A stretch of 42,058 nt of DNA, taken from an uncultured archaeon. GTDB lineage: Archaea > Asgardarchaeota > Lokiarchaeia > Sigyniarchaeales > SOKP01. The stretch is from NCBI GenBank assembly GCA_964493715.1, contig CAZBPC010000022.1, forward strand, positions 1 to 42,058, given 5' to 3'. The notes under the pieces were generated by a model. The model worked only from the letters and a program-made list of their open reading frames with translations. It searched no databases and was not told where the DNA came from. Both the position numbers and the translations under genes were made by a program. Numbering within the stretch: position 1 is the stretch's first letter; every line of letters starts with the position of its first letter. Positions 1,689 through 41,345 of this stretch are shown piece after piece.

Positions 1689-1925
1689 TAATTTTAGGTT
1701 TACAAATTAATAAATCTACATGTATAAATTGATTCTTTTATCATTACTATTTAATAATATTCGATTTTGAATGGGGGGTTAAAGATGGGAAATTGATTGA
1801 GAAATGTTTAATAACAGTTCTTATTTACTAAATCTTGCACATTTTTAAGTTTAAATTGAAAGATTTAAAGTGTAAAATGACTCATTCAATTCATGTGAAA
1901 ATTGATAAAAAATCGGTTAAAAATT

Positions 1926-19929: not shown

Positions 19930-20790
19930 ATGTATATAGATGAAAACTCAAAAGTTGTTGTGCAAGGGATTACAGGCAATCAAGGAGGTTTTCATACAAA
20001 ACTCATGCTTGAATATGGTACAAAAATTGTAGCAGGTGTAAATCCAAATAAAGGTGGTGAAGAAGTTCAAGGAATTCCGGTTTTCAATTCCATCAAAAAA
20101 GCAGTTAATGAAACAAATTGCGATACGAGTATTGTATTTGTTCCTGCTAAATTTACATTTGATGCTGTTAAAGAGAGTTTGTTAGCAGGAATAAAGATAA
20201 GTGTTATTATCACTGAATTAATGCCAGTTTTCGATATGTTAAGGTTGGTAGAGATAGCAAGGGAGAAAAATTTATATTTAATTGGACCAAATAGCCCAGG
20301 AATGATGATTCCGGATAAAATTAAATTGGGGATCATGCCAAGTGATTTGTGTCATTTTGGAGAAGTAGCTGTTATTTCCAAAAGTGGAACATTATCCTAC
20401 GAGATTACTAAAGTAATCGGAACAGCTGGTATTGGTGTTTCAGCTTATATCGGGATAGGGGGAGATCCTGTGAGAGGTACAACAATGTTAGAAGCAATAG
20501 AATATTATAATGAGGACCCAAAAACAAAAATCATTGTTTTGATAGGTGAAATCGGTTCAAATGAAGAAGAAAAAGCAGCATTATTTATAAAGAATAATGT
20601 TGATAAATCAGTTATAGCGTATATTGCTGGAAAAAACGTACCAGAAGGAAAACGCATGGGTCATGCAGGAGCTATTATCTCAGGAGTCTTTGGCTCAGCT
20701 CAAGGAAAAATTAAAGCTTTAAGAAATTCAGGAGTTTTAATTGCTGATAATCCATGGGATGTTCCAAAAATAATAAATGACATTCTATAA
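19930..20790 (+). CDS. sucD: Succinyl-CoA synthetase alpha subunit
   Basis: QGITG, IGPNSPG, SKSGTL, GIGGD and RMGHAGA (phospho-His) motifs. The start abuts the sucC stop. Confidence 0.93.
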   Translation: MYIDENSKVVVQGITGNQGGFHTKLMLEYGTKIVAGVNPNKGGEEVQGIPVFNSIKKAVNETNCDTSIVFVPAKFTFDAVKESLLAGIKISVIITELMPVFDMLRLVEIAREKNLYLIGPNSPGMMIPDKIKLGIMPSDLCHFGEVAVISKSGTLSYEITKVIGTAGIGVSAYIGIGGDPVRGTTMLEAIEYYNEDPKTKIIVLIGEIGSNEEEKAALFIKNNVDKSVIAYIAGKNVPEGKRMGHAGAIISGVFGSAQGKIKALRNSGVLIADNPWDVPKIINDIL

Positions 20791-22331: not shown

Positions 22332-23624
22332 TTGGCCCAGAAGAATGTATACGAAATGGCAGCAAAGAAGTTAATTGCTTCTGAATTACCCAAATATTAT
22401 CCGCAATTCGAGTATCATAATAAAATAGCGATAATCGAGCCTAATACGGATATAGATCAAGTAATTGCTGAAAACTCGTGGATGAAAACTGACAAATTAG
22501 TTGTAAAACCTGATCAACTGTTTGGTAAGAGGGGTAAAGCTAATTTAATTTTACTTGATGCTGATAGCAATCAAATGAAAGAATTTTGTAATAGTAACTT
22601 AGGAAGAGTTCGTGTTATTTCTGGAATTGAAGGAGAAATTACCCGGATGCTTGTTGAACCATTTATCCCACATCAAAAAGAATATTACATCTCATTTACA
22701 ACCGAGAGGGAAAATGATCTGATTCACTTTAGTTTTGAAGGTGGTATTTTTGTGGAAGAAAATTGGGATAAAGTGTTGCATATACCTATACCTGTTGGTC
22801 AAGAAATTCAGGATTTTGATTTAGCAAGCAAGATGCCCGATTTAGGTGATTTGATGGATGTAATAATTCCCTTTATTAAGGGTATGTATCAAGTTTTTGT
22901 CGATCAAGATTTTACTTTCCTTGAAATTAATCCATTTGCCATTACAAAAGAACATAAGATTGTTCCATTAGATGTAAAGGCTCGTTTAGATGACACAGCT
23001 GCTTTTCTTCATGCAGATACATGGGGAAATCCTCAGAATCCTATAGAATTCCCGGCTGGTTTTGGTCAGAAAATGAGTCCTGAAGAAGAAAAAATACAAA
23101 GTCTAGATGAAAAGACGGGAGCCTCACTTAAATTAACGATTCTTAACAAAGAGGGTCGAATATGGACTATGGTTGCTGGAGGTGGAGCAAGCGTTATATA
23201 TACAGATACAATTGCAGACCTTGGTCTTGCAAATGAACTTAGCAACTATGGAGAGTATTCTGGTAACCCTAGTCAAGATCACACGCAAATTTATGCTCAA
23301 ACCATAATTGATCTCATTACCGAATCCCCTGATCCTGAGGGAAAAGAGAAATACTTAATAATAGGCGGAGGAATTGCAAACTTTACTGATGTTAAAGCCA
23401 CATTTGGAGGAATTGTGAAAGCAATCAAGAATTCGGTCGATAAATTAAAGAAGGCTAATGTAAAGATCCTCGTTCGGAGAGGCGGTCCAAATGAAAAGCA
23501 AGGGTTAGAATTAATGCGAAAAGTTGGTGAAGAAACTGGCATTCCAATAGATATTTATGATCGGTATGATAGCATGACACGACCAGTTGCTAGAATGAAA
23601 GAAAAAATGGAGAGTGAATTGTAA
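22332..23624 (+). CDS. aclB: ATP-citrate lyase, ATP-grasp/citrate-binding subunit (AclB in Chlorobium naming)
   Basis: VKPDQLFGKRGK, LEINPF, SLKLTILN, WTMVAGGGAS, NYGEYSG, GGGIANFT and VRRGGPN motifs; TTG start. Confidence 0.92.
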   Translation: MAQKNVYEMAAKKLIASELPKYYPQFEYHNKIAIIEPNTDIDQVIAENSWMKTDKLVVKPDQLFGKRGKANLILLDADSNQMKEFCNSNLGRVRVISGIEGEITRMLVEPFIPHQKEYYISFTTERENDLIHFSFEGGIFVEENWDKVLHIPIPVGQEIQDFDLASKMPDLGDLMDVIIPFIKGMYQVFVDQDFTFLEINPFAITKEHKIVPLDVKARLDDTAAFLHADTWGNPQNPIEFPAGFGQKMSPEEEKIQSLDEKTGASLKLTILNKEGRIWTMVAGGGASVIYTDTIADLGLANELSNYGEYSGNPSQDHTQIYAQTIIDLITESPDPEGKEKYLIIGGGIANFTDVKATFGGIVKAIKNSVDKLKKANVKILVRRGGPNEKQGLELMRKVGEETGIPIDIYDRYDSMTRPVARMKEKMESEL

Positions 23625-25460
23625 ATGGAAAATTATGAATTATTTGATGAAAATTCCCAAGCCATAATTTATGGGTTACAAGCGGCTCCAGTTCAACGAA
23701 TGTTAGATTTTGATTACGTGTGTCGTCGGAAGACGCCATCGGTTGCTGCCATGATTCGACCTACCCAGGAAGCTGCAGTTGCGTATCATAAAGTATTCTG
23801 GGGAAGTAGCGAAATTGTGATTCCTGTTTATAAAACGTTAAGTATGGCAATCAAGAAGCATCCTAAAGCAGACGTTATGATAAATTTTGCATCTTTTCGC
23901 TCTGCATATGATACTAGTAAGGAAGCACTTGATTCAGAAACGATTCGAGTTGTTGTAATTATTGCCGAAGGTGTACCAGAAAGGCAAAGTCAATTACTAA
24001 ATAAAATTGCACATGATCATGAAAAAGTTATTATTGGTCCGGCTACAGTTGGAGGAATACGTGCTGGAGCTTTTAAAATCGCTAATACTGCGGGTACACT
24101 TGAAAATATAATATTATCCAAACTGTATCGCCCTGGTTCAGTAGGTTTTGTATCCAAGTCTGGTGGTTTAAATAACGAAATGAATTTTATGATTGCCCAA
24201 AATACAGATGGAGTCTATGAAAGTATTGCAATCGGAGGGGATCGCTATCCTGGATCCCGGCTAATCGATCACCTTTTGAGATACGAATCAAACCCAAAAA
24301 TCAAAATGCTTGTTTGCTTGGGTGAAATTGGCGGAACAGAAGAATATGAAATAGTTAACGCCTTGAAGAGTGGAACAATCAAAAAGCCCATTGCTGTATG
24401 GGTTACAGGAACTGCCGCGAGAATACTTCCTAAGGGTCTCCAGTTTGGTCATGCAGGTGCAATGGCTGGAAGTGATAGAGAAACGGCTGAAGCCAAAAAT
24501 GATGCACTCAAAAAGGCTGGGGCTATGGTTCCAACTTCTTATGAAGATTTCGATAAAGTAATTAGAGGAATATTTGATAGACTAAAATCTGAAGGTAAAA
24601 TTGAACCAATTGACGAAGTAGAACCCCCCAAAATTCCGCTTGATTTTAATGAAGCTGTTCGACTTGGAATAGTCCGACGTCAAAGTGATGTTGTTGTCAC
24701 CATTTCAGATGATCGTGGTGATGTACCAACCTTTGCTGGTATCGGACTTGATGATATAATCCGTGAACATAAATCAATTGGGTATGTGATTGGACTCTTA
24801 TGGTTTAAGAAAGAATTACCCGAATTCGCTCAAGAATTCATAGAAATGGTGATTAAGCTTACTGCAGATCATGGACCTGCTGTTAGTGGAGCTCATAATG
24901 CGATCATCACTGCTCGTGCTGGTAAAGATTTAATGTCCTCACTTGCTTCGGGAATTTTAACAATTGGCCCTCGTTTTGGTGGCGCAATTTCAGATGCTGC
25001 TAAATATTTCAGGGAAGCTTTACAAAAACAAATGCCGCCATTGGAATTTGTAAGTTACATGAAAAATGTGGCACAAGTGAATATCCCGGGGATAGGGCAT
25101 AGAATAAAATCCGTACAGAATCCAGATGTTCGAGTAACTTTACTCAAAGAATTCGTCTTTAAGAAATTTCCAAAACATCCTCACCTAGATTATGCATTGG
25201 AAGTAGAAAAACTCACAACATCTAAGCGTAACAACTTAATTCTGAATGTCGATGGTTGCATAGGTATTACTTTTTTGGATTTACTGGAAAATCTAGATTT
25301 CACTAAAGAAGAGATTGAAGATGTTATACAAAGTGAGGCATTGAATGGATTATTCGTTCTAGGAAGAACAATTGGAATGATGGGACATGTATTTGATCAA
25401 AAACGTCAACGTGCTGGGTTATATCGTCAACCATGGGATGAAATTTTATTTGGGAGCTAA
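23625..25460 (+). CDS. aclA: ATP-citrate lyase, CoA-binding/citryl-CoA lyase subunit (AclA in Chlorobium naming)
   Basis: QRMLDFDY, NFASFRSA, IGPATVGG, QFGHAGA, ADHGPAVSGAHN, IPGIGHRIKS and LILNVDG motifs. The start abuts the aclB stop. Confidence 0.93.
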   Translation: MENYELFDENSQAIIYGLQAAPVQRMLDFDYVCRRKTPSVAAMIRPTQEAAVAYHKVFWGSSEIVIPVYKTLSMAIKKHPKADVMINFASFRSAYDTSKEALDSETIRVVVIIAEGVPERQSQLLNKIAHDHEKVIIGPATVGGIRAGAFKIANTAGTLENIILSKLYRPGSVGFVSKSGGLNNEMNFMIAQNTDGVYESIAIGGDRYPGSRLIDHLLRYESNPKIKMLVCLGEIGGTEEYEIVNALKSGTIKKPIAVWVTGTAARILPKGLQFGHAGAMAGSDRETAEAKNDALKKAGAMVPTSYEDFDKVIRGIFDRLKSEGKIEPIDEVEPPKIPLDFNEAVRLGIVRRQSDVVVTISDDRGDVPTFAGIGLDDIIREHKSIGYVIGLLWFKKELPEFAQEFIEMVIKLTADHGPAVSGAHNAIITARAGKDLMSSLASGILTIGPRFGGAISDAAKYFREALQKQMPPLEFVSYMKNVAQVNIPGIGHRIKSVQNPDVRVTLLKEFVFKKFPKHPHLDYALEVEKLTTSKRNNLILNVDGCIGITFLDLLENLDFTKEEIEDVIQSEALNGLFVLGRTIGMMGHVFDQKRQRAGLYRQPWDEILFGS

Positions 25461-25604
25461 GGAGAATATTCAAACTATATTTTTACAAATTTAAATTAAC
25501 CTTTTTTGTTTAATTTATAAAAATAATAAATTTTAAGAAATCTAAATAATTAAAAACAAAAGCAAATCAAAGAAAAAATAAAATTGAAATCGAGGAAATA
25601 AAAC

Positions 25605-26816
25605 ATGGAAGATGTAGTTCAAAAGGCAAAGGACCACTTTGAAGGTTTAGTAAGGGTTCAATTAAAAAGAATTGAAGCTTTAAAGAGAGGAGCAGATTGG
25701 ATTGATTATTCTAAATTGAAACCACTCATAATAGGTGTAGCTGGTGGAGATTATATCGGACCAGAAATTACAAAACATGCCGAAAATATTTTAAAGTTTC
25801 TTTTAAAAGAAGAAGTTAAAAGCGGTAAAATTCAGTTTAAAAATATCGTTGGATTGACTATTGAAAACCGAGCAAAATTATTAAAAGCAATACCTGATGA
25901 TGCTCTGGTTGAGCTAAAGAAATGCCATGTGATTCTCAAGGGACCCACCCATACTCCTTCGTCAGCCGATCTTACTTCTGGTAAATGGCCAAACTTAGAA
26001 AGCGCAAATGTGTCGATGCGAAGAGAATTAGATTTATTTGCTAATGTTCGACCAGTTAAAGTTCCCGAGTTAGGTATTGATTGGATCTTTTTTAGGGAGA
26101 ACACGGAAGGAGCTTATGTATTGGGTTCACAGGGAATTAATGTAACAGAAGACTTAGCTTTTGATTTTTGTGTCCATACCAAACAAGGTACAGATAGAAT
26201 CCTGAGATTAGCATTTGATTATGCTAAAAAAACTGGACTAAATAGAGTATCTTTGATTACAAAAGCAAATGTTGTGAAAGCTACTGATGGAATGTACTTA
26301 AACATGGCGAAAAAGCTGGCAAAAGAAGAATACCCAGAAATAAGGTTTGATGATTGGTATATAGATATAATGGCCGCCAAATTAATTGATCCAGAACGTC
26401 AGAGAGACTTTAAAGTATTCGTGGCACCCAACTTATATGGAGATATCATTACTGATGAAGCAGCGCAAATTCAAGGATCCGTAGGTACTGCGGGAAGTGC
26501 AAATATCGGAAAACGCTATGCGATGTTTGAAGCCATACATGGTACAGCACCTAGAATGGTAGAAACAGGAAGAACTAAATACGCAGATCCAACAAGCATT
26601 ATTAAAGCTTCTGCAATGCTCTTAAATCATATTGGATACATAGAAAAAGCTAAAAAGCTAGAAATGGCATTAGATATCTGTGCATTATACGAGAAAAAGT
26701 TAAAAGTGACTGGAAGAGACACGGGTGCGACGGGTGCAGAGTTCGGCAAGTACATAATGGAAACCTTACAAGATCCAAAGATTGAAGAGAAATGGAATAG
26801 CTTTCAAAAAGCTTGA
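25605..26816 (+). CDS. icd: Isocitrate/isopropylmalate dehydrogenase family enzyme, probably isocitrate dehydrogenase
   Basis: GDYIGPEI, LKGP, SANVSMRRELDLFANVRP, RENTEG, NLYGDIITD and FEAIHGTAP motifs; lies directly downstream of aclBA. Substrate is inferred from context. Confidence 0.75.
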   Translation: MEDVVQKAKDHFEGLVRVQLKRIEALKRGADWIDYSKLKPLIIGVAGGDYIGPEITKHAENILKFLLKEEVKSGKIQFKNIVGLTIENRAKLLKAIPDDALVELKKCHVILKGPTHTPSSADLTSGKWPNLESANVSMRRELDLFANVRPVKVPELGIDWIFFRENTEGAYVLGSQGINVTEDLAFDFCVHTKQGTDRILRLAFDYAKKTGLNRVSLITKANVVKATDGMYLNMAKKLAKEEYPEIRFDDWYIDIMAAKLIDPERQRDFKVFVAPNLYGDIITDEAAQIQGSVGTAGSANIGKRYAMFEAIHGTAPRMVETGRTKYADPTSIIKASAMLLNHIGYIEKAKKLEMALDICALYEKKLKVTGRDTGATGAEFGKYIMETLQDPKIEEKWNSFQKA

Positions 26817-30577: not shown

Positions 30578-31918
30578 ATGATGACAAGAAAGAAAGTGGT
30601 AATTATAGGGGCCCTCGGAATGGATTTTCATGTTTTTAACACAGTATTCAGAGATAACAAGGAGTATGAAGTTATTGCGTTCACTATTGCTGGGGAACAA
30701 AATGTTGGAACCACTGAAGAAACTCAAAGGAGATATCCAGCAGAATTAGCTGGAAAATTATACCCAAAGGGTATTCCGATGCTTCCTGAAGAAAATCTCT
30801 CAGAAATTATAAAGCTCCATAAAATAGATGAAGTAGTGTTTGCATATTCTGATGTTTCACACGAAGAAGTAATGCATAAAGCTTCTCGAGCTTTATCTGC
30901 TGGAGCAAATTATCGATTGATATCAGGGAAGTTCACACAAATAGAATCCAATAAACCAGTAGTAGCTATATGCGCTGTTAGAACGGGATGCGGTAAAAGT
31001 CAAGTTTCCAGAGCAACTTATCGGTATCTAATGAGCAAAGGTTATAAGGTTGTTGCAGTAAGAGAACCAATGCCTTATGGAGATTTGATAAAACAAAATG
31101 TAATGCGATTTGAAAAATACGAAGATTTAGATAAATACGATTGTACAATTGAAGAACGGGAAGAATATGAACCCTATATAGAGCAGGGTCTTGTGATTTA
31201 TTCTGGAGTGGACTATGAAAAAATAATCAGACAGGCAGAAAAGGAAGCAGATATCATAATTTTCGATGGCGGAAACAACGAAATTTCGTTTTATGTTCCA
31301 GATTTACTTTTTATCGTAGTAGATCCATTGAGACCTGGACACGAAATGAAATATCATCCAGGTGAAGTGAATGCTCGATCAGCTGACGCATTTGTAATTA
31401 ACAAATTAAATAGTGCAAAAGCAGAAGATGTGAAAATTGTAGAAACTAATTTAAACGAGTTAAACCCTCAGGCAACTAGAATACATACCAATTCAGTTGT
31501 AACTATCGAAGGAAATCACGATTTAAAGGGTAAAAGGGTGATTGTTGTTGAAGATGGGCCAACTTTAACTCACGGAAACATGTCTTATGGTGCGGGATTT
31601 GTCGCAGCAACCAATAGTGGTGCTACGATCATCGATCCTAAACCCTACATTACTGGTACAATGAAAAAATTATTCGAAGAGTTTCCACAAATTACACAAA
31701 TAGTCCCAGCAATGGGGTACAACGACCAACAGATTAAAGACATGGAAGATACGCTTAATAAAGCAGATTGTGATATTATTATTGATGGTAGCCCGATAGA
31801 TCTAGAGAAATTAATTAAAAGCAATAAGCCCATCATTAGAGTCACATACGATATTGAACCAATATCCAGTCCAACTATCGAAGAAACATTAGATAAATTT
31901 ATTGAAAAATTTTTATAA
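30578..31918 (+). CDS. arcE: ArcE-type arginine synthetase (P-loop family often annotated cyclic 2,3-diphosphoglycerate synthetase-like/GTPase)
   Basis: DFHVFNTVFRDN, AYSDVSH, AVRTGCGKS, PMPYGDL, TIEEREEYE, DGGNNE, YHPGEVN, VEDGPTLTHG and PAMGY motifs. Clustered with OTC and carbamate kinase. Confidence 0.8.
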   Translation: MMTRKKVVIIGALGMDFHVFNTVFRDNKEYEVIAFTIAGEQNVGTTEETQRRYPAELAGKLYPKGIPMLPEENLSEIIKLHKIDEVVFAYSDVSHEEVMHKASRALSAGANYRLISGKFTQIESNKPVVAICAVRTGCGKSQVSRATYRYLMSKGYKVVAVREPMPYGDLIKQNVMRFEKYEDLDKYDCTIEEREEYEPYIEQGLVIYSGVDYEKIIRQAEKEADIIIFDGGNNEISFYVPDLLFIVVDPLRPGHEMKYHPGEVNARSADAFVINKLNSAKAEDVKIVETNLNELNPQATRIHTNSVVTIEGNHDLKGKRVIVVEDGPTLTHGNMSYGAGFVAATNSGATIIDPKPYITGTMKKLFEEFPQITQIVPAMGYNDQQIKDMEDTLNKADCDIIIDGSPIDLEKLIKSNKPIIRVTYDIEPISSPTIEETLDKFIEKFL

Positions 31919-31942
31919 AGAAATTTTTAAATTTTAATATGT

Positions 31943-31990
31943 AAAAGGGCTTGACATCAAGAACCCTTTTTTCATAAGTTTTTTATTTTT
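31943..31990 (+). terminator. Hairpin plus T-tracts between arcE and aor
   Basis: AAAAGGG-CTTGA-CA-TCAAG-AA-CCCTTTT, followed by further T-runs. Confidence 0.5.
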
Positions 31991-32009
31991 TCAGAAGGTG
32001 AAAAATAAA

Positions 32010-34202
32010 TTGATAATTGCAGAAAAAAAATATGAAATTCGTGAAGTCCAAAAAGGGTATGCTAATAGAACTCTATATATTAATCTTAGTAATAATGAGA
32101 TTCAGATCAGACCGGTCTTTGATGAAATGAAAGAAAAGTTTATCGGTGGAAAGGGATTTGATCTTTGGCTCATGTGGGTGAGCATGAATGGACTTCCTCG
32201 AGATAAAATTGTTAATTGGAATGACCCTGAAAATGAGATTTGTATTTCTTCGGGACCTTTAGGAGGAAACATCTTTTATCCTGGTTCGGGAAAATCAATA
32301 GTTACTACAATATCTCCTTTAACAGATATGATCATAGATTCAAATGTAGGGGGTTATTTCGGACCCTATTTAAAATTCTCGGGTTTTGACGCGATTGAAA
32401 TTCAAGGGAAAGCCCAAAAAGAGGTGTTAATATACATAGATGGTGTAGAGGGTTTTGTTCAAATTAAGGAAGTCGAAGATTCTGAAGGGCTATCAAATTA
32501 TTCTCATGAATTGACTCAACAACTTACAGCACAATACGCAGAAGATGATCGTGAAAAACAAAGAATTTCAGTTGTAAGTACGGGTCCGGGAGCAAAATAT
32601 TCGAATTGGGGTATGTTAAACTTCTCTTGGTATGTTCCAGGTCGCAATTGGGCATCAAGTAAACAAGCGGGGAGAGGCGGAATTGGTAGTGTTTTTGCGG
32701 ATAAACGTGTTAAAGCTTTGGTGTGTCGCTCTCCAAAAGTTTCCGTTAATTCTAATAATCCCGCTAATTTAGAAGAAGCTAGAAAAATAGGAATCGCACA
32801 TACCCAAGAAATAATTAAACTTGATCCTATTCAGAATGAAATGCGCAGAGTGGGGACGGGACACCTACCAGATATTATGAACGTGACTGATCTCTTACCA
32901 ACAGAAAATTATCGTTTCGGAGCTCATCGAGAAATCCGAGGAAAAAACATCCCTTACAATAGAGAGATCATGAGAGGAATATACTCTGGAAAAGAAGGAG
33001 GAGATGGATGTTGGATTGGCTGTACTGTTTCATGTTCTCACTATTCAGAAGGACATGAGGTCTTAACGGGTCCTTTTAAGGGACAAAAATTAATCGTTGA
33101 TGGACCAGAATATGAAACTATCGCTGGTTGTGGCTCAAATTGGGGAGTTTGGGACCCAAAATGGGTCTTAGAAGTAAATTTTTACTGCGATACCTATGGT
33201 TTAGATACAATTTCGGTAGGGACGGGAATAGCTTTTGTAATGGAATGCTTCGAAGCAGGCATTTTAAATAAAGAGAGGACTGGAGGACTAGAATTAAATT
33301 TTGGAGATGTTGAAGCAGCCGTAGAGTTGATTCATCAAATGGCAAAGGGTGAAGGTTTTGGAGTTATTGTAGGAAAAGGTATTAAATACATGAAAAAATA
33401 TTTTGTTGGAAATTTTGGAGCAGATCCACAATTTATACAAGATATTGGCATGGAACATAAAGGTTTAGAATTTTCTGAGTATGTAACTAAAGAATCCTTA
33501 GCACAACAAGGTGGATATGGACTAACTAATAAGGGACCACAACATGATGAAGCGTGGCTCATATTTGATGACGTGATTAGAAATTCGATACCATCATTCG
33601 AAGACAAGGCTAAAGCTCTGAGATATTTTCCATTATGGAGGACTTGGTTTAGTTTGTGTGGTTTATGCAAGTTACCATGGAATGATATCCAACCAACTAG
33701 CCAAGCAGATTATCCCATAAAAGATCCTAAAACAGGAGAGCTGGTTCGAGCAAAAATCCCAGATCACGTTGAAAATTATGTAAAATATTATTCAGCAGTT
33801 ACGGGAAATCAATCAACATCTAATGATCTCATAAACATGTCTGAAAGAGTGTATACCTTTCAACGGATATTTAATATTAGATTAGGTAAAGGACTTCGAG
33901 AACACGATTCAAATCTACCTTATAGAGCAGTTGGTCCAGTTACTTTACTTGAATACGAAAGCCGCGCTGAGAGATATGATACGCAACTTAAAGAGTTAGG
34001 ATTTAAAATTAAAGGTAAATCTACCGAAGAAAAAATAAAAATTCTCCGTAACTATCGTGAGGATCAGTACGTGAAACTTCAAGATGCAGTTTACTTAGAG
34101 CGGGGTTGGAATCAAAACGGTTGTCCTACTATAGAGTTAGTAAAAAAGTTAGGAATTGATTTTAATGAGATAATTGATATCATTACTCCTTTTCAAGAAT
34201 AA
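32010..34202 (+). CDS. aor: Aldehyde:ferredoxin oxidoreductase (tungsto/molybdo-bispterin AOR family)
   Basis: SPLT, SNVGGYFG, QAGRGGIG, CWIGCTVSC, GPEYET, CDTYGLDTIS and GLCKLPW motifs. TTG at 32010 is preferred because the GTG at 31998 lies within the GAAGGTGA RBS. Confidence 0.9.
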   Translation: MIIAEKKYEIREVQKGYANRTLYINLSNNEIQIRPVFDEMKEKFIGGKGFDLWLMWVSMNGLPRDKIVNWNDPENEICISSGPLGGNIFYPGSGKSIVTTISPLTDMIIDSNVGGYFGPYLKFSGFDAIEIQGKAQKEVLIYIDGVEGFVQIKEVEDSEGLSNYSHELTQQLTAQYAEDDREKQRISVVSTGPGAKYSNWGMLNFSWYVPGRNWASSKQAGRGGIGSVFADKRVKALVCRSPKVSVNSNNPANLEEARKIGIAHTQEIIKLDPIQNEMRRVGTGHLPDIMNVTDLLPTENYRFGAHREIRGKNIPYNREIMRGIYSGKEGGDGCWIGCTVSCSHYSEGHEVLTGPFKGQKLIVDGPEYETIAGCGSNWGVWDPKWVLEVNFYCDTYGLDTISVGTGIAFVMECFEAGILNKERTGGLELNFGDVEAAVELIHQMAKGEGFGVIVGKGIKYMKKYFVGNFGADPQFIQDIGMEHKGLEFSEYVTKESLAQQGGYGLTNKGPQHDEAWLIFDDVIRNSIPSFEDKAKALRYFPLWRTWFSLCGLCKLPWNDIQPTSQADYPIKDPKTGELVRAKIPDHVENYVKYYSAVTGNQSTSNDLINMSERVYTFQRIFNIRLGKGLREHDSNLPYRAVGPVTLLEYESRAERYDTQLKELGFKIKGKSTEEKIKILRNYREDQYVKLQDAVYLERGWNQNGCPTIELVKKLGIDFNEIIDIITPFQE

Positions 34203-34229: not shown

Positions 34230-36311
34230 ATGGAAAACATAACAAGCCATCCCATCCTTGAAATACCGGAAAGAAAAAAAATAAAATTCAAGTTTGACGG
34301 AAAAGAATTAACTGGATTTGAGGGATTGGTTATATCTTCGGTCTTGTTTCTTAATGGGATTAAAATTTTTGGACATCACATAAAAGATTCAAGTCCTCAG
34401 GGGATCTTTTGCGCTAATGGACAATGTTCTCAATGTAATGTAATCGCCAATAATATTCCAGTGAAAGCTTGCATGACACTGTTAGAAGATGGAATGGAGA
34501 TAAGAAGTTGCAATGGCTTACCAGAGTTACCTCTGGACGATAAATATATAGAAGTTGGCGATGTTGATATTATTAAGACAGAAGTTCTTGTTATAGGTGC
34601 GGGTCCAGCGGGATTATCTGCTACCAAACTTCTTGGAGAACATGAAATAGATGTAATACTAGTCGATGATAAAAATAGACTTGGGGGAAAATTAGTGCTT
34701 CAAACCCATAAATTTTTTGGTTCTCAGGAAGATGTATATGCTGGTAAGCGTGGTATTGATATTGCAGAAATTCTTGGTGATCAGGTAAAATTATTGGACT
34801 CCGTAAATATTTGGATTAATAGCACGGTTGTAGCTGTATTCAGTGACAAGTTAATTGGGGTTTTGAAGAATAATGAAGAATATGTTTTAATTTCGCCAAG
34901 AAATATATTAGTAGCAACGGGAGCGAGGGAAAAAATGCTTGTATTTCCAGGAAACACTTTACCGGGTGTATATGGTGCTGGTGCATTTCAAACATTGGTG
35001 AATCGAGATTTAATAAAAGCCGCAAAACAGATTTTCATTATTGGAGGAGGGAATGTTGGATTAATAGCAGGATATCATGCAATTCAAGCAGGAATAAATG
35101 TGGTCGGACTAATCGAAGCAATGCCATACTGTGGAGGATATAAAGTGCATGAAGATAAACTCCACCGCCTGGGTGTACCAATTTATACGAGACATACTGT
35201 CACAAGTGCTAATGGAAGTAATAATGTCGAATCAATAACTATTGGGCAAATTAATGAAAAAGGAGAAATTCTTCCAAATACTAAAAAAACCTTCAATTGT
35301 GATACAATACTAATAGCTATAGGTTTGAATCCTGTAGATGAGTTTTATCTTAAAGCAAAAGAATTTGGAATGAATGTGTGGGTTGCTGGAGATGCTCAAG
35401 AAATTGCTGAAGCGTCAGCTGCGATTTTTACGGGAAGAATTGAAGCGTTAAAAATGTTAGAAAAGATGGGAATCAAAGTTAAAGAAAATATCGATGATTT
35501 AGAAAAGTTTGCAAACATAATGAAGGCAAAACCACCACTTCCCAGTGAACCGAAAATTTTAGAAAAGGAAGATGGAATTTTTCCTCTCTTTCATTGTAAT
35601 CAAGAAATCCCATGTAATCCATGTACCTCGGTATGCCCTCAAGATCAAATTAATACAATTGATAATATCATCACACAACTTCCATACTTTAGAGATGAAA
35701 AAGATTGTATCGGATGTGGTAAATGTATAGCAGTATGTCCTGGTTTGGCTATTACATTAATAGATTATCGCAAAAATAAAGATTTTCCATCTGTTACACT
35801 CCCACTTGAGCTATCTGCTAATAAAATTGAAATAGGTAAAAAAGTACTTATTGTGAGTAACGATGCTGGATTAGGAGAATTCAAAGTTAAACGAGTGCGT
35901 ATATTACCCGAATTTCCTAAAACGCAACTCATCACTGTTGAAATACCGTCAAGAATCGCTAAACATGCTACGGGTATAAGATTAAATCAAAATTCTTATA
36001 ATGAATCGCTGAATTTATATCAGAAAAATTTTACTGAAAATGAAACAATTGTATGTCGTTGTGAACGCGTTTCAGTAGGAGAAATTCGACATTGGATTCG
36101 CAATGGTGTAAGGGATTTTAATGAATTGAAAGCATTGACAAAAGTTGGAATGGGGTCTTGTGGTGGAAAAACGTGCACCCCTCTTATTGATAGGATATTC
36201 CGTGAAGAAGGTGTTAATATTGATGAGGTTGTTCCTGGAACAAAGCGGCCTTTATTCATTGAAATGCCCTTGAAACTATTTGCTGGTATAAAGGAGAAAA
36301 AGGAGGATTAA
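34230..36311 (+). CDS. Fused Fe-S flavoprotein ([2Fe-2S] + FAD/NAD(P) + 2x[4Fe-4S] + BFD-like), proline dehydrogenase/sarcosine oxidase alpha-like subunit
   Basis: FCANGQCSQC...KAC; GAGPAG; ATGARE; GGGNVG; CNQEIPCNPCTSVCP; CIGCGKCIAVCP; CRCE...GMGSCGGKTC. Confidence 0.8.
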   Translation: MENITSHPILEIPERKKIKFKFDGKELTGFEGLVISSVLFLNGIKIFGHHIKDSSPQGIFCANGQCSQCNVIANNIPVKACMTLLEDGMEIRSCNGLPELPLDDKYIEVGDVDIIKTEVLVIGAGPAGLSATKLLGEHEIDVILVDDKNRLGGKLVLQTHKFFGSQEDVYAGKRGIDIAEILGDQVKLLDSVNIWINSTVVAVFSDKLIGVLKNNEEYVLISPRNILVATGAREKMLVFPGNTLPGVYGAGAFQTLVNRDLIKAAKQIFIIGGGNVGLIAGYHAIQAGINVVGLIEAMPYCGGYKVHEDKLHRLGVPIYTRHTVTSANGSNNVESITIGQINEKGEILPNTKKTFNCDTILIAIGLNPVDEFYLKAKEFGMNVWVAGDAQEIAEASAAIFTGRIEALKMLEKMGIKVKENIDDLEKFANIMKAKPPLPSEPKILEKEDGIFPLFHCNQEIPCNPCTSVCPQDQINTIDNIITQLPYFRDEKDCIGCGKCIAVCPGLAITLIDYRKNKDFPSVTLPLELSANKIEIGKKVLIVSNDAGLGEFKVKRVRILPEFPKTQLITVEIPSRIAKHATGIRLNQNSYNESLNLYQKNFTENETIVCRCERVSVGEIRHWIRNGVRDFNELKALTKVGMGSCGGKTCTPLIDRIFREEGVNIDEVVPGTKRPLFIEMPLKLFAGIKEKKED

Positions 36312-36315
36312 TTAG

Positions 36316-37482
36316 ATGGTAGAATATGATGTGATTATCATTGGTGCTGGAAGTATTGGGGTTCCAACTGCATTAGCAACTGCCAGTGATGGATTAAAAA
36401 CATTAGTAATAGATACTTTACCATCAGTATCTCAAGCTGATAATAAGCATGCAATAGGAGGCATCAGGGCAACCCATACTCAAAAAGGGAAAATAATGTT
36501 ATGTCAACGATCAATCGAAATTTTCAGGAACTGGGAAAGCCAATTTGGAGATGATATCTGGTGGAAGCAAGGAGGATATTGTTTTGTGGCTTATACTAAA
36601 GAGCATGAGAACACGCTTAAATTAAATGTGCAATTACAAAAATCCTTTGGTTTGGATATAGACTATGTTAGCAAGGAGGAAATAAAGAATTTAATTCCAG
36701 GAATTAATGAGGATAACTTACTTGGGGGAACTTATAGTCCAAAAGATGGCAACGCTTCCCCTCTCCTTTCCCTTCATGCTTTTTATCGCCAATCAAGAGA
36801 AAAAGGAGCTGAGTTTAAATTCAATGAGACCGTAACAGATATATTTTCTAAAAATGGAACGATCATAGGACTAAAAACAAATAAAAGTAAATATAACACG
36901 ACTCAAATTGTGAACGCAGCGGGAGGAAATGCTAATACGTTAGGAAAAATGGTAAACATTAATTTACCCGTGATTCCAGAATCCCATGAAGCGGGTATTA
37001 CTGAACCCGTAAAAAAAATTTTCAACCCTATGGTTGTTGATATGAGACCCGCTATAGATAATACTTTTGGAAACTCTAAAAATTATTATTTTTATCAAAA
37101 TAAAGAAGGTAAAATCATTTTTTGCCTTACTCCAGACCCAAGCATAATTGGTAAAGATAGAAGAGAAACAAGTTCATTCCTTCCTCAGATTACTAAACGA
37201 ATGATTTCCCTTATGCCCAGATTGAAAAATATAAAAATTCGTAGAACGTGGAGAGGGCTATATCCAATGACTCCTGATGGAAATCCTATTTTAGGGATCG
37301 TGGAGGGTATAAATGGATATGTAAATGCTGTGGGAATGTGTGGTCAAGGGTTCATGCTAGGTCCTGGCATTGGTGAACTCATAAGTAGATTTATACGGAA
37401 CAAATTAACTCCGCAAGATAAAGATATCCTTAATGAATTCTCCATTACAAGAGATTATAATAAGGAAGAAGAATTAAAGTAA
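36316..37482 (+). CDS. FAD-dependent amine/imino-acid dehydrogenase, DAO family (proline dehydrogenase/sarcosine oxidase beta-like)
   Basis: IIGAGSIG, GGIR, IVNAAG, RTWRGLYPMTPDGNPILG and GMCGQGFMLGPG motifs. Starts 4 bp after the alpha-like subunit. Confidence 0.82.
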   Translation: MVEYDVIIIGAGSIGVPTALATASDGLKTLVIDTLPSVSQADNKHAIGGIRATHTQKGKIMLCQRSIEIFRNWESQFGDDIWWKQGGYCFVAYTKEHENTLKLNVQLQKSFGLDIDYVSKEEIKNLIPGINEDNLLGGTYSPKDGNASPLLSLHAFYRQSREKGAEFKFNETVTDIFSKNGTIIGLKTNKSKYNTTQIVNAAGGNANTLGKMVNINLPVIPESHEAGITEPVKKIFNPMVVDMRPAIDNTFGNSKNYYFYQNKEGKIIFCLTPDPSIIGKDRRETSSFLPQITKRMISLMPRLKNIKIRRTWRGLYPMTPDGNPILGIVEGINGYVNAVGMCGQGFMLGPGIGELISRFIRNKLTPQDKDILNEFSITRDYNKEEELK

Positions 37483-37552: not shown

Positions 37553-38491
37553 ATGAAAATGGTTAGACATTTATTAAAAATATCAGATTTGTCGAAAGTA
37601 GAATGTGAAAAGATAATATCGAAAGCTATAGAAATTAAAAATAATCCTCCGAAATTTAAAAGTGCATTAAAAGGAGAAACTCTCTTAATGCTATTCGAAA
37701 AACCCTCATTAAGAACCCGTATATCTTTTGAGACAGGAATGCAACAATTGGGTGGACATGCAATATTTTATTCTATAGTAGATTCCCCCTTAGGGAAAAA
37801 GGAAAACATCCACGATACTGCCAAAGTAGTATCATTATATGTGAATTTAATCGCTGCAAGGGTATACAAAAGAGAAGATATGCGAGATTTCGCTAAAGAT
37901 GCCAGCGTTCCATTAATCAACATGCTTGATGATTTTGCTCATCCTTGTCAGATTCTCTGTGATTTTCTTACCATTAAGGAAAAAAAAGGGCGTCTTAATA
38001 ATTTAAAAATGTCATTTTTTGGTGATGGATATAATAATGTTACTTATGATCTCATGAGAATGTGTGCGATGTTTGGATTAAGAATGGATGTTGCTTGTCC
38101 AAGCGAAACTGATTATTCTCCTGAACAAGAAGTTTTAGATGAAGTAGCGGAATTATCAAAAATTTCAGGTGCTGATGTAAGAGTCGTCCATGATGCTAAA
38201 GAAGCAGCTAAAGATGCAGAGATTATTTATACTGATTCATGGATGAGTTATGGGATTCCTAAGGAGCTAGAAGAAGAACGTAAAAAAATATTTATGCCAT
38301 ATCAAGTGACTGAAGAAATAATGAAAAGTGCTAAATCCGATGCTCTTTTCATGAATTGTCTCCCCGCTATGAGAGGTTCTGAACAAACGGCAGCTGTTAT
38401 AGATGGCCCTCAATCAATTGTTTTCGATCAAGCGAGAAATCGTCTTCACGGACAAAAAGCAATCATGCTATTTCTAAGGGATAAATTTTAA
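37553..38491 (+). CDS. arcB: Ornithine carbamoyltransferase (probably catabolic)
   Basis: FEKPSLRTR, HPCQ, GDGYNNV, TDSWMSYG, NCLP and NRLH motifs; directly upstream of carbamate kinase. Confidence 0.92.
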   Translation: MKMVRHLLKISDLSKVECEKIISKAIEIKNNPPKFKSALKGETLLMLFEKPSLRTRISFETGMQQLGGHAIFYSIVDSPLGKKENIHDTAKVVSLYVNLIAARVYKREDMRDFAKDASVPLINMLDDFAHPCQILCDFLTIKEKKGRLNNLKMSFFGDGYNNVTYDLMRMCAMFGLRMDVACPSETDYSPEQEVLDEVAELSKISGADVRVVHDAKEAAKDAEIIYTDSWMSYGIPKELEEERKKIFMPYQVTEEIMKSAKSDALFMNCLPAMRGSEQTAAVIDGPQSIVFDQARNRLHGQKAIMLFLRDKF

Positions 38492-38645: not shown

Positions 38646-39572
38646 TTGAAAACATTAATCATAGCACTTGGTGGGAATGCTCTCATAAAACCGGGAGAAA
38701 TAGGTACCACTGAAGAAATGATTAATAATTTACGATCCCCAATTAAGCAAATTGCAGAATTATCAAAAGAATATAACATTGTTATCACGCACGGAAATGG
38801 TCCCCAAGTAGGAAATCTTTTATTACAACAAGAAGCTACAGAAACTATTTCAAAAAGACCTCTACAAATATTGGTAGCAGAAACTCAAGGGCAAATTGGA
38901 TTCTTAATTGAATCCACTTTAGATGAAGAATTAATGACGCTAAACATGGATAACGAAAAATTTTTCCTGACAGTACTTACTTATGTTAAAGTCGATCAAA
39001 ATGATCCTGCCTTCAAACATCCAACAAAACCAATCGGACCATCATATAAAAGAAAAAAAACTGGTTATGTAAAAACATCTAAGGGGTGGAGACGTGTAGT
39101 TGCTTCTCCTAAGCCAATTAAAATTTATCAATGGCGTGAAATAAAAAAATTGATGGCACTAGGCGATTTTATTGTCATTGCTTGTGGAGGCGGAGGAGTT
39201 CCAGTCATAAAAGATGAAAAAAGACTATACGGTGTTGAGGCTGTAATTGATAAGGATCTTGCAAGTGCGAAATTAGGAGAACAAATTAGAGCTCAAATTC
39301 TCTTAATTGCATCTGATGTTGAAAAAGTTGCACTAAATTATGGTCGAATTGACTATAAATACTTGGATCTTATTTCCACAAGTGAAGCTAGAAGCTATAT
39401 GAAAGAAGGACATTTCCCTGCAGGCTCTATGGGTCCAAAAGTTCAAGCTGCGATAAATTTTCTAGAATCTGGAGGGGAACGTGCCATCATAACTTCTATT
39501 GAAAAAATAAAGGATGCAATAGAAGGAAAAGCAGGAACGCAGTTTTATATTAATATGGGAGAGAAAATCTAA
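38646..39572 (+). CDS. arcC: Carbamate kinase
   Basis: ALGGNAL, THGNGPQVG, PTKPIGP, WRRVVASP, GGGGVP, VIDKD and GSMGPKV motifs. TTG start with an AGGAG RBS. Confidence 0.95.
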   Translation: MKTLIIALGGNALIKPGEIGTTEEMINNLRSPIKQIAELSKEYNIVITHGNGPQVGNLLLQQEATETISKRPLQILVAETQGQIGFLIESTLDEELMTLNMDNEKFFLTVLTYVKVDQNDPAFKHPTKPIGPSYKRKKTGYVKTSKGWRRVVASPKPIKIYQWREIKKLMALGDFIVIACGGGGVPVIKDEKRLYGVEAVIDKDLASAKLGEQIRAQILLIASDVEKVALNYGRIDYKYLDLISTSEARSYMKEGHFPAGSMGPKVQAAINFLESGGERAIITSIEKIKDAIEGKAGTQFYINMGEKI

Positions 39573-39615: not shown

Positions 39616-39927
39616 CTAAGAGGCAATCTCATCCGTAATTCTCGTGCCCTTAAGGGATGCTTTGCCAAGAGGGCTCTTCACCGTGCCCGACATGGTGTCA
39701 CCATCAACTTTGACATTGAATTCAAAAGTTAAGAATCGTGGAAATTTTCTCGAAGCCTTCCACATCAATTTGTCACCGTCAATTTTTCCATCCGTGATAT
39801 CACTGGCGCCTCTACGATATTCCATTCTACCAGTGATCGCATTACCTGCAAGGAAGAGATGCAAGGTGGATTTTTGAGTACCAAAAGGGGTCTTCATTTC
39901 TAATTTCCATATTTCATTAACAGACAT
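39616..39927 (-). CDS. Small hypothetical beta-rich protein with elevated GC
   Basis: 103 aa (WKLEMKTPFG...ITDGKIDGDKLMW...VDGDTMSG). Roughly 44% GC by hand count. Confidence 0.65.
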   Translation of the reverse strand: MSVNEIWKLEMKTPFGTQKSTLHLFLAGNAITGRMEYRRGASDITDGKIDGDKLMWKASRKFPRFLTFEFNVKVDGDTMSGTVKSPLGKASLKGTRITDEIAS

Positions 39928-40082: not shown

Positions 40083-41345
40083 TTAGCTAACAACGAATAC
40101 CTTTTCAATTATACTTAGAGCCCAATCGATTTCCTCTTTAGTAATTATTAAAGGAGGGGCAAATCTAATTGTTTTAGAATGAGTATGTTTAGCGAGTACT
40201 CCATTGTCTTTAAGTATTTCGACGATATGCCTTGCATCCGATTCAAACTCGACTGCCATTAAGAGTCCTTTGCCTCTAACTTCCTTGATTGGAACTATAG
40301 TTTTCTTTGCTGCAATATTTCTAAGCCCTTCTAAGAAATACGCCCCAGATTCCTTAGCTCTTTGAGCTAAATGATCATCAATATGGATATCAAGTGATTT
40401 CATGGCAACCGCACTAGCCAATGGATTTCCACCAAATGTTGATCCATGCGTACCTGGTGTAATGATATCAGGACCAATTATATCTCTCGTAGTGACCACT
40501 GCGGAGACGGGATAAACACCTCCTCCGAGCGCTTTTCCAAGTAACATCACATCCGGCTTCACATCTTCATGGTCACATCCAAAAAATTCCCCTGTCCTTC
40601 CGAAACCAGTTTGAATCTCATCAGCAATCATTAGAACATTGTATTTTGTGCAAATTTCCCTAATCTTTTTTAAGTAGCCTTCAGGAGGGATCTTTATCCC
40701 CGCTTCTCCTTGAATTGGCTCAAATAGGAATGCTGCTACGTTTTCAGCACCAATTTCTAAAATTGTATTTTCTAGTTTTTCAGCATCTCCATACGGAATA
40801 ATTACAAAACCGGGAGTGTAAGGGCCGAAGTTCCCATAGTATCTTACAGCTGCGATATCCGTACTAAATCCTACGATTGCTATTGACCGACCATGAAAAT
40901 TATCTCTACAAACAATAATTTTTGCCTCATTTTTAGAAATCTTTTTCTTGATATAGCCCCAAGCTCTCGCAACTTTTAACCCAGTAGAAACTGCTTCAGT
41001 CCCCGAGTTCATGGGCAATGCCATTATTCCAGATTTGTTTGGATCGTTGATATGTTGACCCACAACTTCGCATAATTTTTTTAAAAAGGGACCCATCATA
41101 TCGTTATAGAACGCGCGAGATGTTAATGTCACCTTATCTGCTTGTTCTTTTAACGCTTTTATAATTTCGGGGTGACAATGCCCCATATTTAGGGCTGAAT
41201 AAGCGGATAAACAATCTAAATACTTTTTACCTTCTGGATCATATACCCAGACACCCTCAGCTTTGCTAATAACAACGGGTATGGGGTGATAATTATGAGC
41301 ACAGTATTTATCATCCATTTCCATATAATCTTTTGAACTTGGCAT
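40083..41345 (-). CDS. rocD: Ornithine--oxo-acid aminotransferase (class III PLP enzyme)
   Basis: AHNYHP, LSAYSALNMGHCHP, LTSRAF, FHGR, EPIQGEAG, DEIQTG, GKALGGG, HGSTFGGNP and IRFAPPL motifs. Confidence 0.92.
   Translation of the reverse strand: MPSSKDYMEMDDKYCAHNYHPIPVVISKAEGVWVYDPEGKKYLDCLSAYSALNMGHCHPEIIKALKEQADKVTLTSRAFYNDMMGPFLKKLCEVVGQHINDPNKSGIMALPMNSGTEAVSTGLKVARAWGYIKKKISKNEAKIIVCRDNFHGRSIAIVGFSTDIAAVRYYGNFGPYTPGFVIIPYGDAEKLENTILEIGAENVAAFLFEPIQGEAGIKIPPEGYLKKIREICTKYNVLMIADEIQTGFGRTGEFFGCDHEDVKPDVMLLGKALGGGVYPVSAVVTTRDIIGPDIITPGTHGSTFGGNPLASAVAMKSLDIHIDDHLAQRAKESGAYFLEGLRNIAAKKTIVPIKEVRGKGLLMAVEFESDARHIVEILKDNGVLAKHTHSKTIRFAPPLIITKEEIDWALSIIEKVFVVS

Follow-up and report, generated by a model that had tools for sequence, protein, structure and literature searches.

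The AOR gene and the gene cluster around it

The stretch of DNA analysed here (hereafter the window) comprises 42,058 nucleotides of contig CAZBPC010000022.1 from the assembly of an uncultured Lokiarchaeia archaeon (GCA_964493715.1; genome G000 in our numbering), and it carries, within a cluster of genes for arginine, ornithine and proline metabolism, a gene for a large subunit (WorL) of the aldehyde:ferredoxin oxidoreductase (AOR/WOR) family, which may well oxidize L-glutamate 5-semialdehyde, the open form of 1-pyrroline-5-carboxylate (P5C). The AOR gene occupies a single open frame on the forward strand at 31998..34202, giving a protein of 734 aa from a GTG at 31998. An in-frame TTG at 32010, with AGGTGA 8 to 13 nt 5' of it, gives 730 aa (32010..34202) and is a reasonable start because the alignments to homologs begin at residue 3 to 6 and the usual annotated length of the homologs is 726 aa. 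A preliminary description of the window had placed an AOR-family gene of about 730 aa between arcE and imino-acid dehydrogenase genes, which the open reading frame (ORF), the Pfam domains and the neighbouring genes bear out, with arcE as a probable label.

The protein consists of the AFOR_N (PF02730, E = 2.9e-45) and AFOR_C (PF01314, E = 1e-89) domains, both far above their gathering scores, and has no Aldedh fold, so that any equivalence to RocA/PutA would be functional and not by descent. The closest solved structures were the AOR of Pyrococcus furiosus (PfAOR; 1aor, E = 2.7e-49) and then the formaldehyde oxidoreductase FOR (1b25, E = 1.3e-42). In the alignment to 1aor, residues C338, C342, C346 and C557 pair with the [4Fe-4S] ligands C288, C291, C295 and C494 of PfAOR, and T287, E373, Y495 and H516 pair with Thr243, Glu313, Tyr427 and His448, which are described in a 2026 classification of WORs (PMC13328260) as second-shell residues kept in the aldehyde-oxidizing enzymes. 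The four cysteines and the four second-shell residues were invariant in 55 of 55 aligned orthologs, and the spacing of the cluster motif was CX3CX3C in comparison to CX2CX3C in PfAOR. By its domains, iron-sulfur cysteines and second-shell residues alike, the protein is thus placed in the AOR/WOR family, and the enzyme looks catalytically intact. It scored far below the cut-offs of the curated NCBIfam equivalogs, with 94.8 bits in comparison to 868 for the YdhV type (NF007354) and 42.8 in comparison to 1300 for archaeal GAPOR (NF040818), both matches spanning the N-terminal domain only, and by this measure of sequence it is outside every characterised WOR subfamily.

Immediately upstream, a gene on the forward strand (30578..31918) encodes a protein of 446 aa which matched no Pfam or NCBIfam family and whose sole PDB match was a weak one to cyclic 2,3-diphosphoglycerate (cDPG) synthetase (E = 0.0028). 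This combination fits the published description of ArcE/TK2200 (PMC11032458), in which the homologs are given as hypothetical proteins with low similarity to cDPG synthase, located near arcB/arcC and occurring in Lokiarchaeota, and for this reason we infer an ArcE-like protein, which is probably an arginine synthetase (arginine + ADP + Pi <-> citrulline + NH3 + ATP). Downstream on the same strand, a gene at 34230..36311 encodes a fusion of 693 aa of the alpha type of proline dehydrogenase (PDH), in which Pfam identified Fer2_4, Pyr_redox_2, two [4Fe-4S] domains and a BFD-like [2Fe-2S] domain. The PDB matches of this protein were 1y56_A (E = 1.5e-18) and sarcosine oxidase alpha (2.5e-18), and its cysteines 61/66/69/81, 456/462/465/469, 493/496/499/503 and 609/611/644/649, which are invariant in nine of nine sequences, fit two [2Fe-2S] and two [4Fe-4S] clusters beside the FAD/NAD(P) domain. 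The next gene (36316..37482, forward strand, 388 aa) is a PDH beta-type flavoprotein of the DAO family (PF01266, 4.2e-56), for which the E value was 3.4e-53 against 1y56_B in comparison to 2e-24 for dimethylglycine dehydrogenase and 1e-20 for sarcosine oxidase beta; 1y56 is, according to the title of the reference cited for it, the L-proline dehydrogenase complex of Pyrococcus horikoshii.

These genes are followed on the forward strand by ornithine carbamoyltransferase (OTC; 37553..38491; TIGR00658, 359.3 bits with a cut-off of 280.85) and carbamate kinase (CK; 38646..39572), which passed PRK12352 (309.3 bits, cut-off 266) while falling slightly short of TIGR00746 (355.7 bits, cut-off 358.25). 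On the reverse strand lie an ornithine-oxo-acid aminotransferase of the OAT/RocD type (40083..41345; TIGR01885, 526.5 bits, cut-off 378.4) and, between it and CK, an ORF of 103 aa (39616..39927) which matched no Pfam or NCBIfam model and whose place in the system is uncertain. The intergenic gaps from ArcE through AOR, PDH alpha, PDH beta and OTC to CK are 79, 27, 4, 70 and 154 nt. The region between ArcE and AOR (31911-31997) holds an A/T-rich TTTTTATAAA at the ArcE stop and an imperfect hairpin (AAGGGCTTG..CAAG..CCCTT) with a T run after it; the AOR gene and those downstream may therefore start their own transcript apart from ArcE.

Genome G000 is 100% complete and holds four homologs of glutamate dehydrogenase (GDH) together with ProC, and no match to ProA or ProB was obtained in it. 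A P5C dehydrogenase (P5CDH) of the RocA/PutA type was likewise not found in this genome, where two ALDH-family genes reached 303 and 284 bits in comparison to the P5CDH cut-offs of 648 and 660; it is possible that a generic ALDH acts on the semialdehyde there.

Extent and genomic context of the AOR clade

The window AOR is the single member of its clade among the 13 AFOR_C matches of G000. In a sample of 199 Promethearchaeota genomes the matches to it were bimodal, with one group at 55% identity or more and above 800 bits (full length) and the other at 35% or less and at most 226 bits, and the orthologs of the clade in Asgard archaea and many anaerobic bacteria shared 53% identity or more, in comparison to about 25% for the paralogs within the genome. 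A scan of species-representative genomes gave 564 relatives, the best 80 of which were Promethearchaeota at 67% to 85% identity and Chloroflexota, Bacillota, Bacteroidota, Cloacimonadota and others at 53% to 59%, full length. A wide protein search gave at least 7,910 clusters (90% identity) at E<=1e-150 out of 8,000 candidates scored; among the 120 of these that were listed, every name beyond "hypothetical protein" was an aldehyde:ferredoxin oxidoreductase label, and the matches of near length contained the two AFOR domains and nothing else. Fusion proteins were not seen, as none of 1286 to 3670 aa matched at E<=1e-100, which is weak evidence.

A tree was built by FastTree only, from 121 rows of the clade and 6 in-genome paralogs, with the long outgroup branches flagged; of the ten paralog loci that were fetched, three (L002, L003 and L008) gave no ORF match at 1e-20 and are not in the tree, and three further AFOR_C matches of G000 were not among the fetched loci. 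The starred branch (0.85+0.85) parts the clade from the paralogs, and the clade itself splits into an archaeal group of 56 rows (support 97) and a bacterial group of 65 rows (support 88). A copy from one archaeon (L035, identical in sequence to L126, G083:C7) nests among Bacillota with a bacterial WorS gene upstream, which suggests that this WorS-AOR pair was transferred from bacteria to the archaeon. Seventy-seven positions were at least 97% conserved in the clade and present in at most one of the six paralogs, and they include a block around the catalytic His, namely Q515, D517, E518, A519 and W520. Residues R216, K498, K512, D517 and E518 do not vary within the clade. The clade of about 730-aa AORs is thus sharply bounded, and it is uncharacterised.

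The genomic context was studied at 120 loci, i.e., the 80 best relatives and 40 around orthologs of the phylum (4 duplicates; many on short contigs), for which ORFs were called and clustered, the cluster representatives were annotated, and neighbours within 6 kb of AOR were counted. The neighbours were a WorS-type polyferredoxin in 23 loci, DAO/PDH beta in 17, the fused PDH alpha in 9, ArcE and an M24B peptidase in 8 each, OTC in 6, and a class-III transaminase and CK in 3 each. For the Promethearchaeota families which we label f1 and f2, the order ArcE-AOR-PDHa-PDHb(-OTC-CK-OAT) was found in nine loci besides the window. ArcE orthologs with 77% to 82% identity lie upstream of AOR in 7 of the 80 loci and additionally in locus L127, and a flavodoxin gene stands between ArcE and AOR in three related loci.

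Eight Bacillota loci share another arrangement, composed of a sigma-54 activator, Fer2_4, Pyr_redox_2, an Fer4 subunit (SO_alpha_A3 in some), DAO, WorS (six of the eight) and AOR, sometimes with an M24 peptidase after it, and their DAO subunit matched 1y56_B at 1.7e-94 in comparison to 2.8e-48 for sarcosine oxidase beta. Two Desulfosporosinus loci (L072 and L079) combine GDH, AOR, the alpha, beta and gamma subunits of a 2-oxoacid:ferredoxin oxidoreductase and an ArgD-type class-III transaminase, to which L079 adds ABC-transporter genes, a DAO gene and an ornithine-cyclodeaminase-family gene, and in Thermoanaerobacteraceae (L059) PDH, GDH and 2-oxoacid:ferredoxin oxidoreductase are found near AOR. 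If AOR is the second step, these three clusters would encode the route from ornithine or proline through the semialdehyde, glutamate and 2-oxoglutarate to succinyl-CoA. The order ProC-WorS-AOR occurs in L137 and L138, with gaps of 98 and 18 nt in L137, and in the archaeal locus L020 ProC lies about 1.8 kb from AOR. The Anaerolineae carry WorS, AOR, an M24B peptidase and a cyclophilin-like gene, and the best model for the M24 proteins near AOR was the Xaa-Pro dipeptidase PepQ, below its cut-off.

Genes for cofactor synthesis (MoeA, MoaA, MoaC and ThiF-like) flank bacterial AOR orthologs, and a W/Mo pterin cofactor is predicted for the window enzyme. The Bacteroidales loci hold ThiF, MoeA, MoaA and TonB genes; within family f1, the loci of genus g6 (L021 and L130) hold MoeA, with MoaA as well in L130, and those of genus g3 (L022 and L128) hold FeoB; the contexts in Bacteroidales and in these two genera are uninformative on the substrate. 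Linkage to PDH was present in 19 of the 121 tree rows, a distribution that requires its state to have changed 8 times or more. For part of the clade, in several unrelated lineages, the link to arginine and proline genes is clear, and the neighbours share P5C/glutamate semialdehyde or its product glutamate. The tie of the clade to arginine and proline genes which the preliminary description had in view thus holds in Promethearchaeota f1 and f2, Bacillota and Desulfosporosinus, and fails in family f7, Bacteroidales and many Anaerolineae. Separately, one Clostridia genome has a second copy of the clade (L135, G289:C305), which together with WorS neighbours genes for an M19 dipeptidase and a peptide-binding protein of family 5, a context of peptide uptake and not of PDH.

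Of the 199 Promethearchaeota genomes, 93 were positive for AOR, 43 for PDH beta (threshold E<=1e-60) and 61 for OAT (60 over the cut-off). AOR and PDH beta occurred together in 35 genomes, AOR only in 58, PDH beta only in 8 and neither in 98 (Fisher value 2e-7), and in three of the eight genomes with PDH beta only, the gene was present as a fragment at a contig edge. AOR and OAT occurred together in 47 genomes, AOR only in 46, OAT only in 14 and neither in 92 (1e-8); both Fisher values overstate the association because related genomes are not independent. In an independent sample of Clostridia, the class of the genome holding L043, AOR orthologs were present in 10 of 151 genomes, and PDH-beta-type genes in 7 of the 150 that were scored for PDH beta and RocA. 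All seven carried an AOR ortholog, in six cases within about 2 kb on the same contig. The remaining AOR-positive Clostridia were G308 and G337, with ProC-WorS-AOR, and G273, whose copy is divergent (45% identity) and has unrelated neighbours.

Two families add to these counts. In family f5, OAT was present in 21 of 21 genomes and AOR in 18 to 19, in comparison to 0 of 21 for ProC, ProA and RocA, so that the product of OAT has no other known consumer there, which fits oxidation of the semialdehyde by AOR well. ProA was found in 11 of the 199 genomes, nine of them in f1 and nearly all in genera without OAT and PDH. Within f1 it was nearly confined to the genera without OAT and PDH beta (g3, g6, g7 and g8), the exception being G132 (g5), which has all three, and it was absent from genera g1, g2 and g4, which carry the ArcE-AOR-PDH-OAT cluster; this looks like the use of two alternative ways to P5C/proline by sister genera.

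Proposed function and alternative explanations

In the function we propose, AOR would be the subunit that carries out catalysis in a pterin-dependent, probably tungsten, aldehyde oxidoreductase whose physiological substrate in this operon would be L-glutamate 5-semialdehyde. Arginine would be converted to citrulline by the ArcE-like protein, yielding ATP, and citrulline by OTC to ornithine and carbamoyl phosphate, from which CK would make further ATP. Ornithine would give glutamate semialdehyde through OAT, and proline would give P5C through the PDH alpha/beta flavoprotein. The shared aldehyde would then be oxidized to glutamate by AOR, whose [4Fe-4S] cluster would hand two low-potential electrons to ferredoxin, to flavodoxin or to PDH alpha with its Fe-S chain, and AOR would stand in for RocA/PutA, the P5C dehydrogenase that depends on NAD. 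The substrate and the direction, like the electron acceptor and the metal, are predictions from the gene and its neighbours. We consider it probable that the enzyme of this operon handles the glutamate semialdehyde/glutamate pair in one direction or the other, and we give about an even chance to the more specific claim that glutamate semialdehyde/P5C is its physiological substrate in the oxidative direction. The preliminary description had proposed a substrate-specialised AOR which makes glutamate and low-potential electrons. This proposal is supported in part: the P5C- and glutamate-related neighbours in several lineages speak for such an enzyme, while family f7 and 43 of the 93 AOR-bearing genomes speak against it.

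Several observations weigh against the proposed function. The 43 Promethearchaeota genomes just mentioned had neither PDH beta nor OAT at the thresholds used. In family f7, AOR was found in 35 of 43 genomes (E<=1e-50; one only at paralog level) and PDH beta, OAT, ProA, ProC and RocA in 0 of 43, and its loci (L093-L112) show AOR by a GTP-type phosphoenolpyruvate carboxykinase with no arginine or proline genes, near an Hdr-like set of a 925-aa Pyr_redox_2/Fer4_20 protein, a 4Fe-4S dicluster protein and a CCG-domain protein. The f7 ortholog must do something else, or P5C must arise in f7 by an unknown route; unless f7 has such a route or has changed function, the clade as a whole is therefore not tied solely to P5C. 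The contexts in Bacteroidales and many Anaerolineae consist of cofactor genes or WorS only, and WOR enzymes are often broad in substrate. The adjacency of ProC, together with the lack of a ProA or ProB match in G000, would fit a biosynthetic direction equally well. The name ArcE for the first gene of the cluster is itself a deduction, and in a search of sequencing runs the locus was found in 20 DNA runs (salt-marsh and sediment metagenomes) and in no RNA run.

The distribution of RocA also belongs among these points. RocA-type P5CDH (TIGR01237) was over the cut-off in 0 of the 199 Promethearchaeota genomes, in 0 of 10 bacterial genomes with a PDH- or transaminase-linked AOR, and in 1 of the 150 Clostridia, namely G347. 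The anticorrelation between AOR and rocA which the preliminary description had predicted could thus not be computed, given the near absence of RocA from the two samples, and the sole genome with RocA carries AOR as well. There (L133, G347:C5), RocA lies 1.1 kb from WorS-AOR and is divergently transcribed. With the two genes as neighbours in one genome, AOR does not strictly replace RocA; their adjacency is at the same time a further association of AOR with P5C. The RocA gene of this locus is preceded by a full set for pterin-cofactor synthesis, comprising two MoeA, MoaA, MoaC, MOSC and a MogA-like protein.

An AOR that is broad in range or otherwise specialised, acting on succinate, glutarate or 2-aminoadipate semialdehyde or on the aldehydes of amino-acid fermentation generally and not specifically on glutamate semialdehyde, is unlikely, and it has several observations behind it. 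The clade extends far beyond the genomes with PDH and OAT, as the 43 of 93 genomes and the lack of any known P5C enzyme in f7 illustrate, the class-III transaminases of Desulfosporosinus are of the ArgD and not the RocD type, and the second copy in G289 sits by a dipeptidase and a peptide-binding protein. PfAOR and FOR are moreover reported to take many aldehydes, and FOR to bind glutarate (PMC13328260, PMC12096430). Against these stands the identity of the neighbours, since PDH, ProC, RocA, OAT/ArgD, the ornithine-cyclodeaminase family and GDH have P5C or glutamate in common and not the intermediates of GABA or lysine metabolism, and the 77 clade-specific positions with the block at the catalytic His suggest a defined pocket.

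The same substrate pair could be used in the opposite direction, with reduced ferredoxin driving glutamate to glutamate semialdehyde/P5C as an ATP-free substitute for ProB/ProA that feeds proline synthesis by ProC and the OAT-OTC-ArcE series towards ornithine, citrulline and arginine, a serious alternative which we regard as unlikely for this operon. Its proline-oxidizing PDH and ATP-yielding ArcE, OTC and CK suit catabolism, which is for this reason the more likely direction here, and the Desulfosporosinus cluster goes on downstream to GDH and the 2-oxoglutarate oxidoreductase. Reduction of an acid by ferredoxin is also uphill unless strongly pulled, and G308 and G200 carry ProA and ProB besides AOR. 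What favours glutamate reduction is the pair of ProC-WorS-AOR operons (L137 and L138) with the nearby ProC of L020, and the complete genome G000 in which ProC is present without a match to ProA or ProB. The arginine synthetase is in addition reported to be able to run towards arginine (PMC11032458), and reduction of non-activated acids by AORs has been reported (PMC9295118).

It is very improbable that the enzyme is a formaldehyde oxidoreductase, clearing formaldehyde released when the DAO flavoprotein demethylates sarcosine or other N-methyl amino acids in a complex without a folate-binding domain. The flavoprotein is indeed homologous to heterotetrameric sarcosine oxidase, the M24 neighbours have a Creatinase_N domain, and FOR is the second-best solved relative of AOR. 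The beta subunits, though, are far closer to 1y56_B than to sarcosine oxidase beta in both the archaea (3.4e-53 in comparison to 1e-20) and the Bacillota (1.7e-94 in comparison to 2.8e-48), and these matches, together with neighbours centred on P5C, make a sarcosine-type source of formaldehyde unlikely. The M24 proteins, for their part, are best matched by PepQ with no creatinase model among the matches at E<=1e-30, and OAT, ProC, RocA, GDH and ArcE/OTC/CK are unconnected to C1 units. That one of 13 generic AOR paralogs came to lie in the cluster by chance, with no functional link, is scarcely credible despite those 13 AFOR_C matches, the fluid gene order of archaea and the absence of linkage in f5, f7 and f22, as the same clade and no other is linked to PDH in both Archaea and Bacillota, the seven Clostridia genomes with PDH beta all carry AOR (adjacent in six), and the order is kept in nine related archaeal loci.

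With oxidation of glutamate semialdehyde as the starting point, a more far-reaching arrangement may be considered, in which PDH and AOR form one four-electron module that oxidizes proline to glutamate in strict anaerobes; we hold this to be quite doubtful. The electron pair from proline oxidation is too high in potential to reduce NAD+ or ferredoxin alone, and the aldehyde pair is very low in potential. In such a module PDH alpha, with its FAD/Fe-S chain, would bring together the high-potential pair from proline and the low-potential pair from the aldehyde, which in bacteria would arrive via WorS, and the outcome would be flavin-based confurcation ending in NAD(P)H, or bifurcation still yielding some reduced ferredoxin. 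A module of this kind would explain why the sampled Clostridia have this PDH type only in genomes with the AOR clade, and why the archaeal alpha fusion is rich in Fe-S clusters.

Relation to known systems and significance

The window AOR resembles PfAOR (1aor; WOR clade 87) in its two Pfam domains, its [4Fe-4S] cysteines and its second-shell Thr, Glu, Tyr and His, and it differs in being about 130 aa longer, with inserts at about 560-592 (after the fourth Cys) and about 646-690. It is also encoded in a dedicated arginine/proline operon, in comparison to the role of broad detoxifier of fermentation aldehydes that is assigned to PfAOR (PMC13328260). To FOR (1b25; 1b4n with glutarate) it can be aligned over residues 20-632, and H-x-E-A-W following the catalytic His is common to both; FOR is nevertheless only distant kin, and no conserved link of FOR to PDH or OAT genes was found where tested. 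The original paper on FOR by Roy et al. in 1999 is said to have tied it to arginine, lysine and proline metabolism. FOR is suspected of having glutaric semialdehyde or dialdehyde, a C5 compound, as its native substrate (PMC12096430), which is the closest published precedent, and a semialdehyde role is for this reason less alien to the WOR family than the preliminary description had implied.

The bacterial orthologs agree with the Class II WORs (WorL + WorS; Caldicellulosiruptor bescii GOR and P. furiosus ASOR) in that 23 of the 120 loci encode, directly upstream of AOR, a protein of 128 to 145 aa bearing several [4Fe-4S] motifs, which fits the WorLS definition as given in PMC13328260. The small subunit expected beside a WorL of this class has four [4Fe-4S] clusters. 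The window gene and the other archaeal members, in contrast, have no adjacent WorS ORF, except for the Bacillota-like L035, and the window has instead a ferredoxin-like module inside the adjacent PDH alpha fusion. The comparison with RocA/PutA concerns the net step only, as AOR is proposed to convert the semialdehyde to glutamate after OAT and proline dehydrogenase in the same way; RocA/PutA has an NAD-dependent ALDH fold, while a pterin/Fe-S enzyme with low-potential acceptors is expected here, making it a functional analogue and not a relative. The PDH of P. horikoshii (1y56) provides the best solved match for the beta subunit of both the window and the Bacillota DAO proteins. The alpha subunit of the window differs in being a 693-aa fusion which keeps the 2Fe-2S-like cysteines 61, 66, 69 and 81 at its N-terminus, whereas in the P. 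horikoshii type the N-terminal domain is described as lacking those four cysteines (PMC1949818).

In the literature searched, we found no WOR partner described for the P. horikoshii-type proline dehydrogenase complex, no proposal that a WOR acts on glutamate semialdehyde, and none that ties a WOR to this proline dehydrogenase. The words proline, semialdehyde and sarcosine are all absent from the main text of PMC13328260, while its supplementary context tables may already list PDH-alpha-type neighbours as 'WorN'; according to that paper, a defined physiological role exists for only 5 of 92 WOR clades. The activity had been called new for the family, and this stands insofar as no earlier proposal for glutamate semialdehyde was found and is tempered by the C5 semialdehyde already suspected for FOR. 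A known enzyme family in a specific, previously unassigned pathway role is a plausible reading of the genes.

With the proposed function, a large and generically named clade (at least 7,910 clusters, as given above) would gain a specific role that can be tested cheaply. If true, the assignment would close a gap in the anaerobic catabolism of arginine, ornithine and proline by providing a consumer of P5C where RocA/PutA is missing, would carry the arginine synthetase pathway, itself described recently, onward as far as glutamate, and would add to the amino-acid fermentation proposed for Asgard archaea a step that reduces ferredoxin and hence yields H2 or formate. If the enzyme runs backwards, it would lead from glutamate to P5C without ATP, a route of interest to pathway engineering.

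Other genes of the window were recorded as well. A citric-acid-cycle set is located just upstream of the arginine/proline cluster (1902-3854, 9591-10982, 18976-20790 and 22332-26816), the members of which are aconitase, a class-II fumarase-type lyase, succinyl-CoA-ligase-like alpha and beta subunits, ATP-citrate lyase A and B, and isocitrate dehydrogenase. A fusion of 1216 aa at 13922-17572 combines CheB methylesterase, CheR methyltransferase, PAS and histidine-kinase ATPase domains, and a Ras-family small GTPase is encoded at 17731-18273 on the strand opposite to it. Arf- and Ras-like GTPase genes were also found flanking AOR in the loci of family f5.

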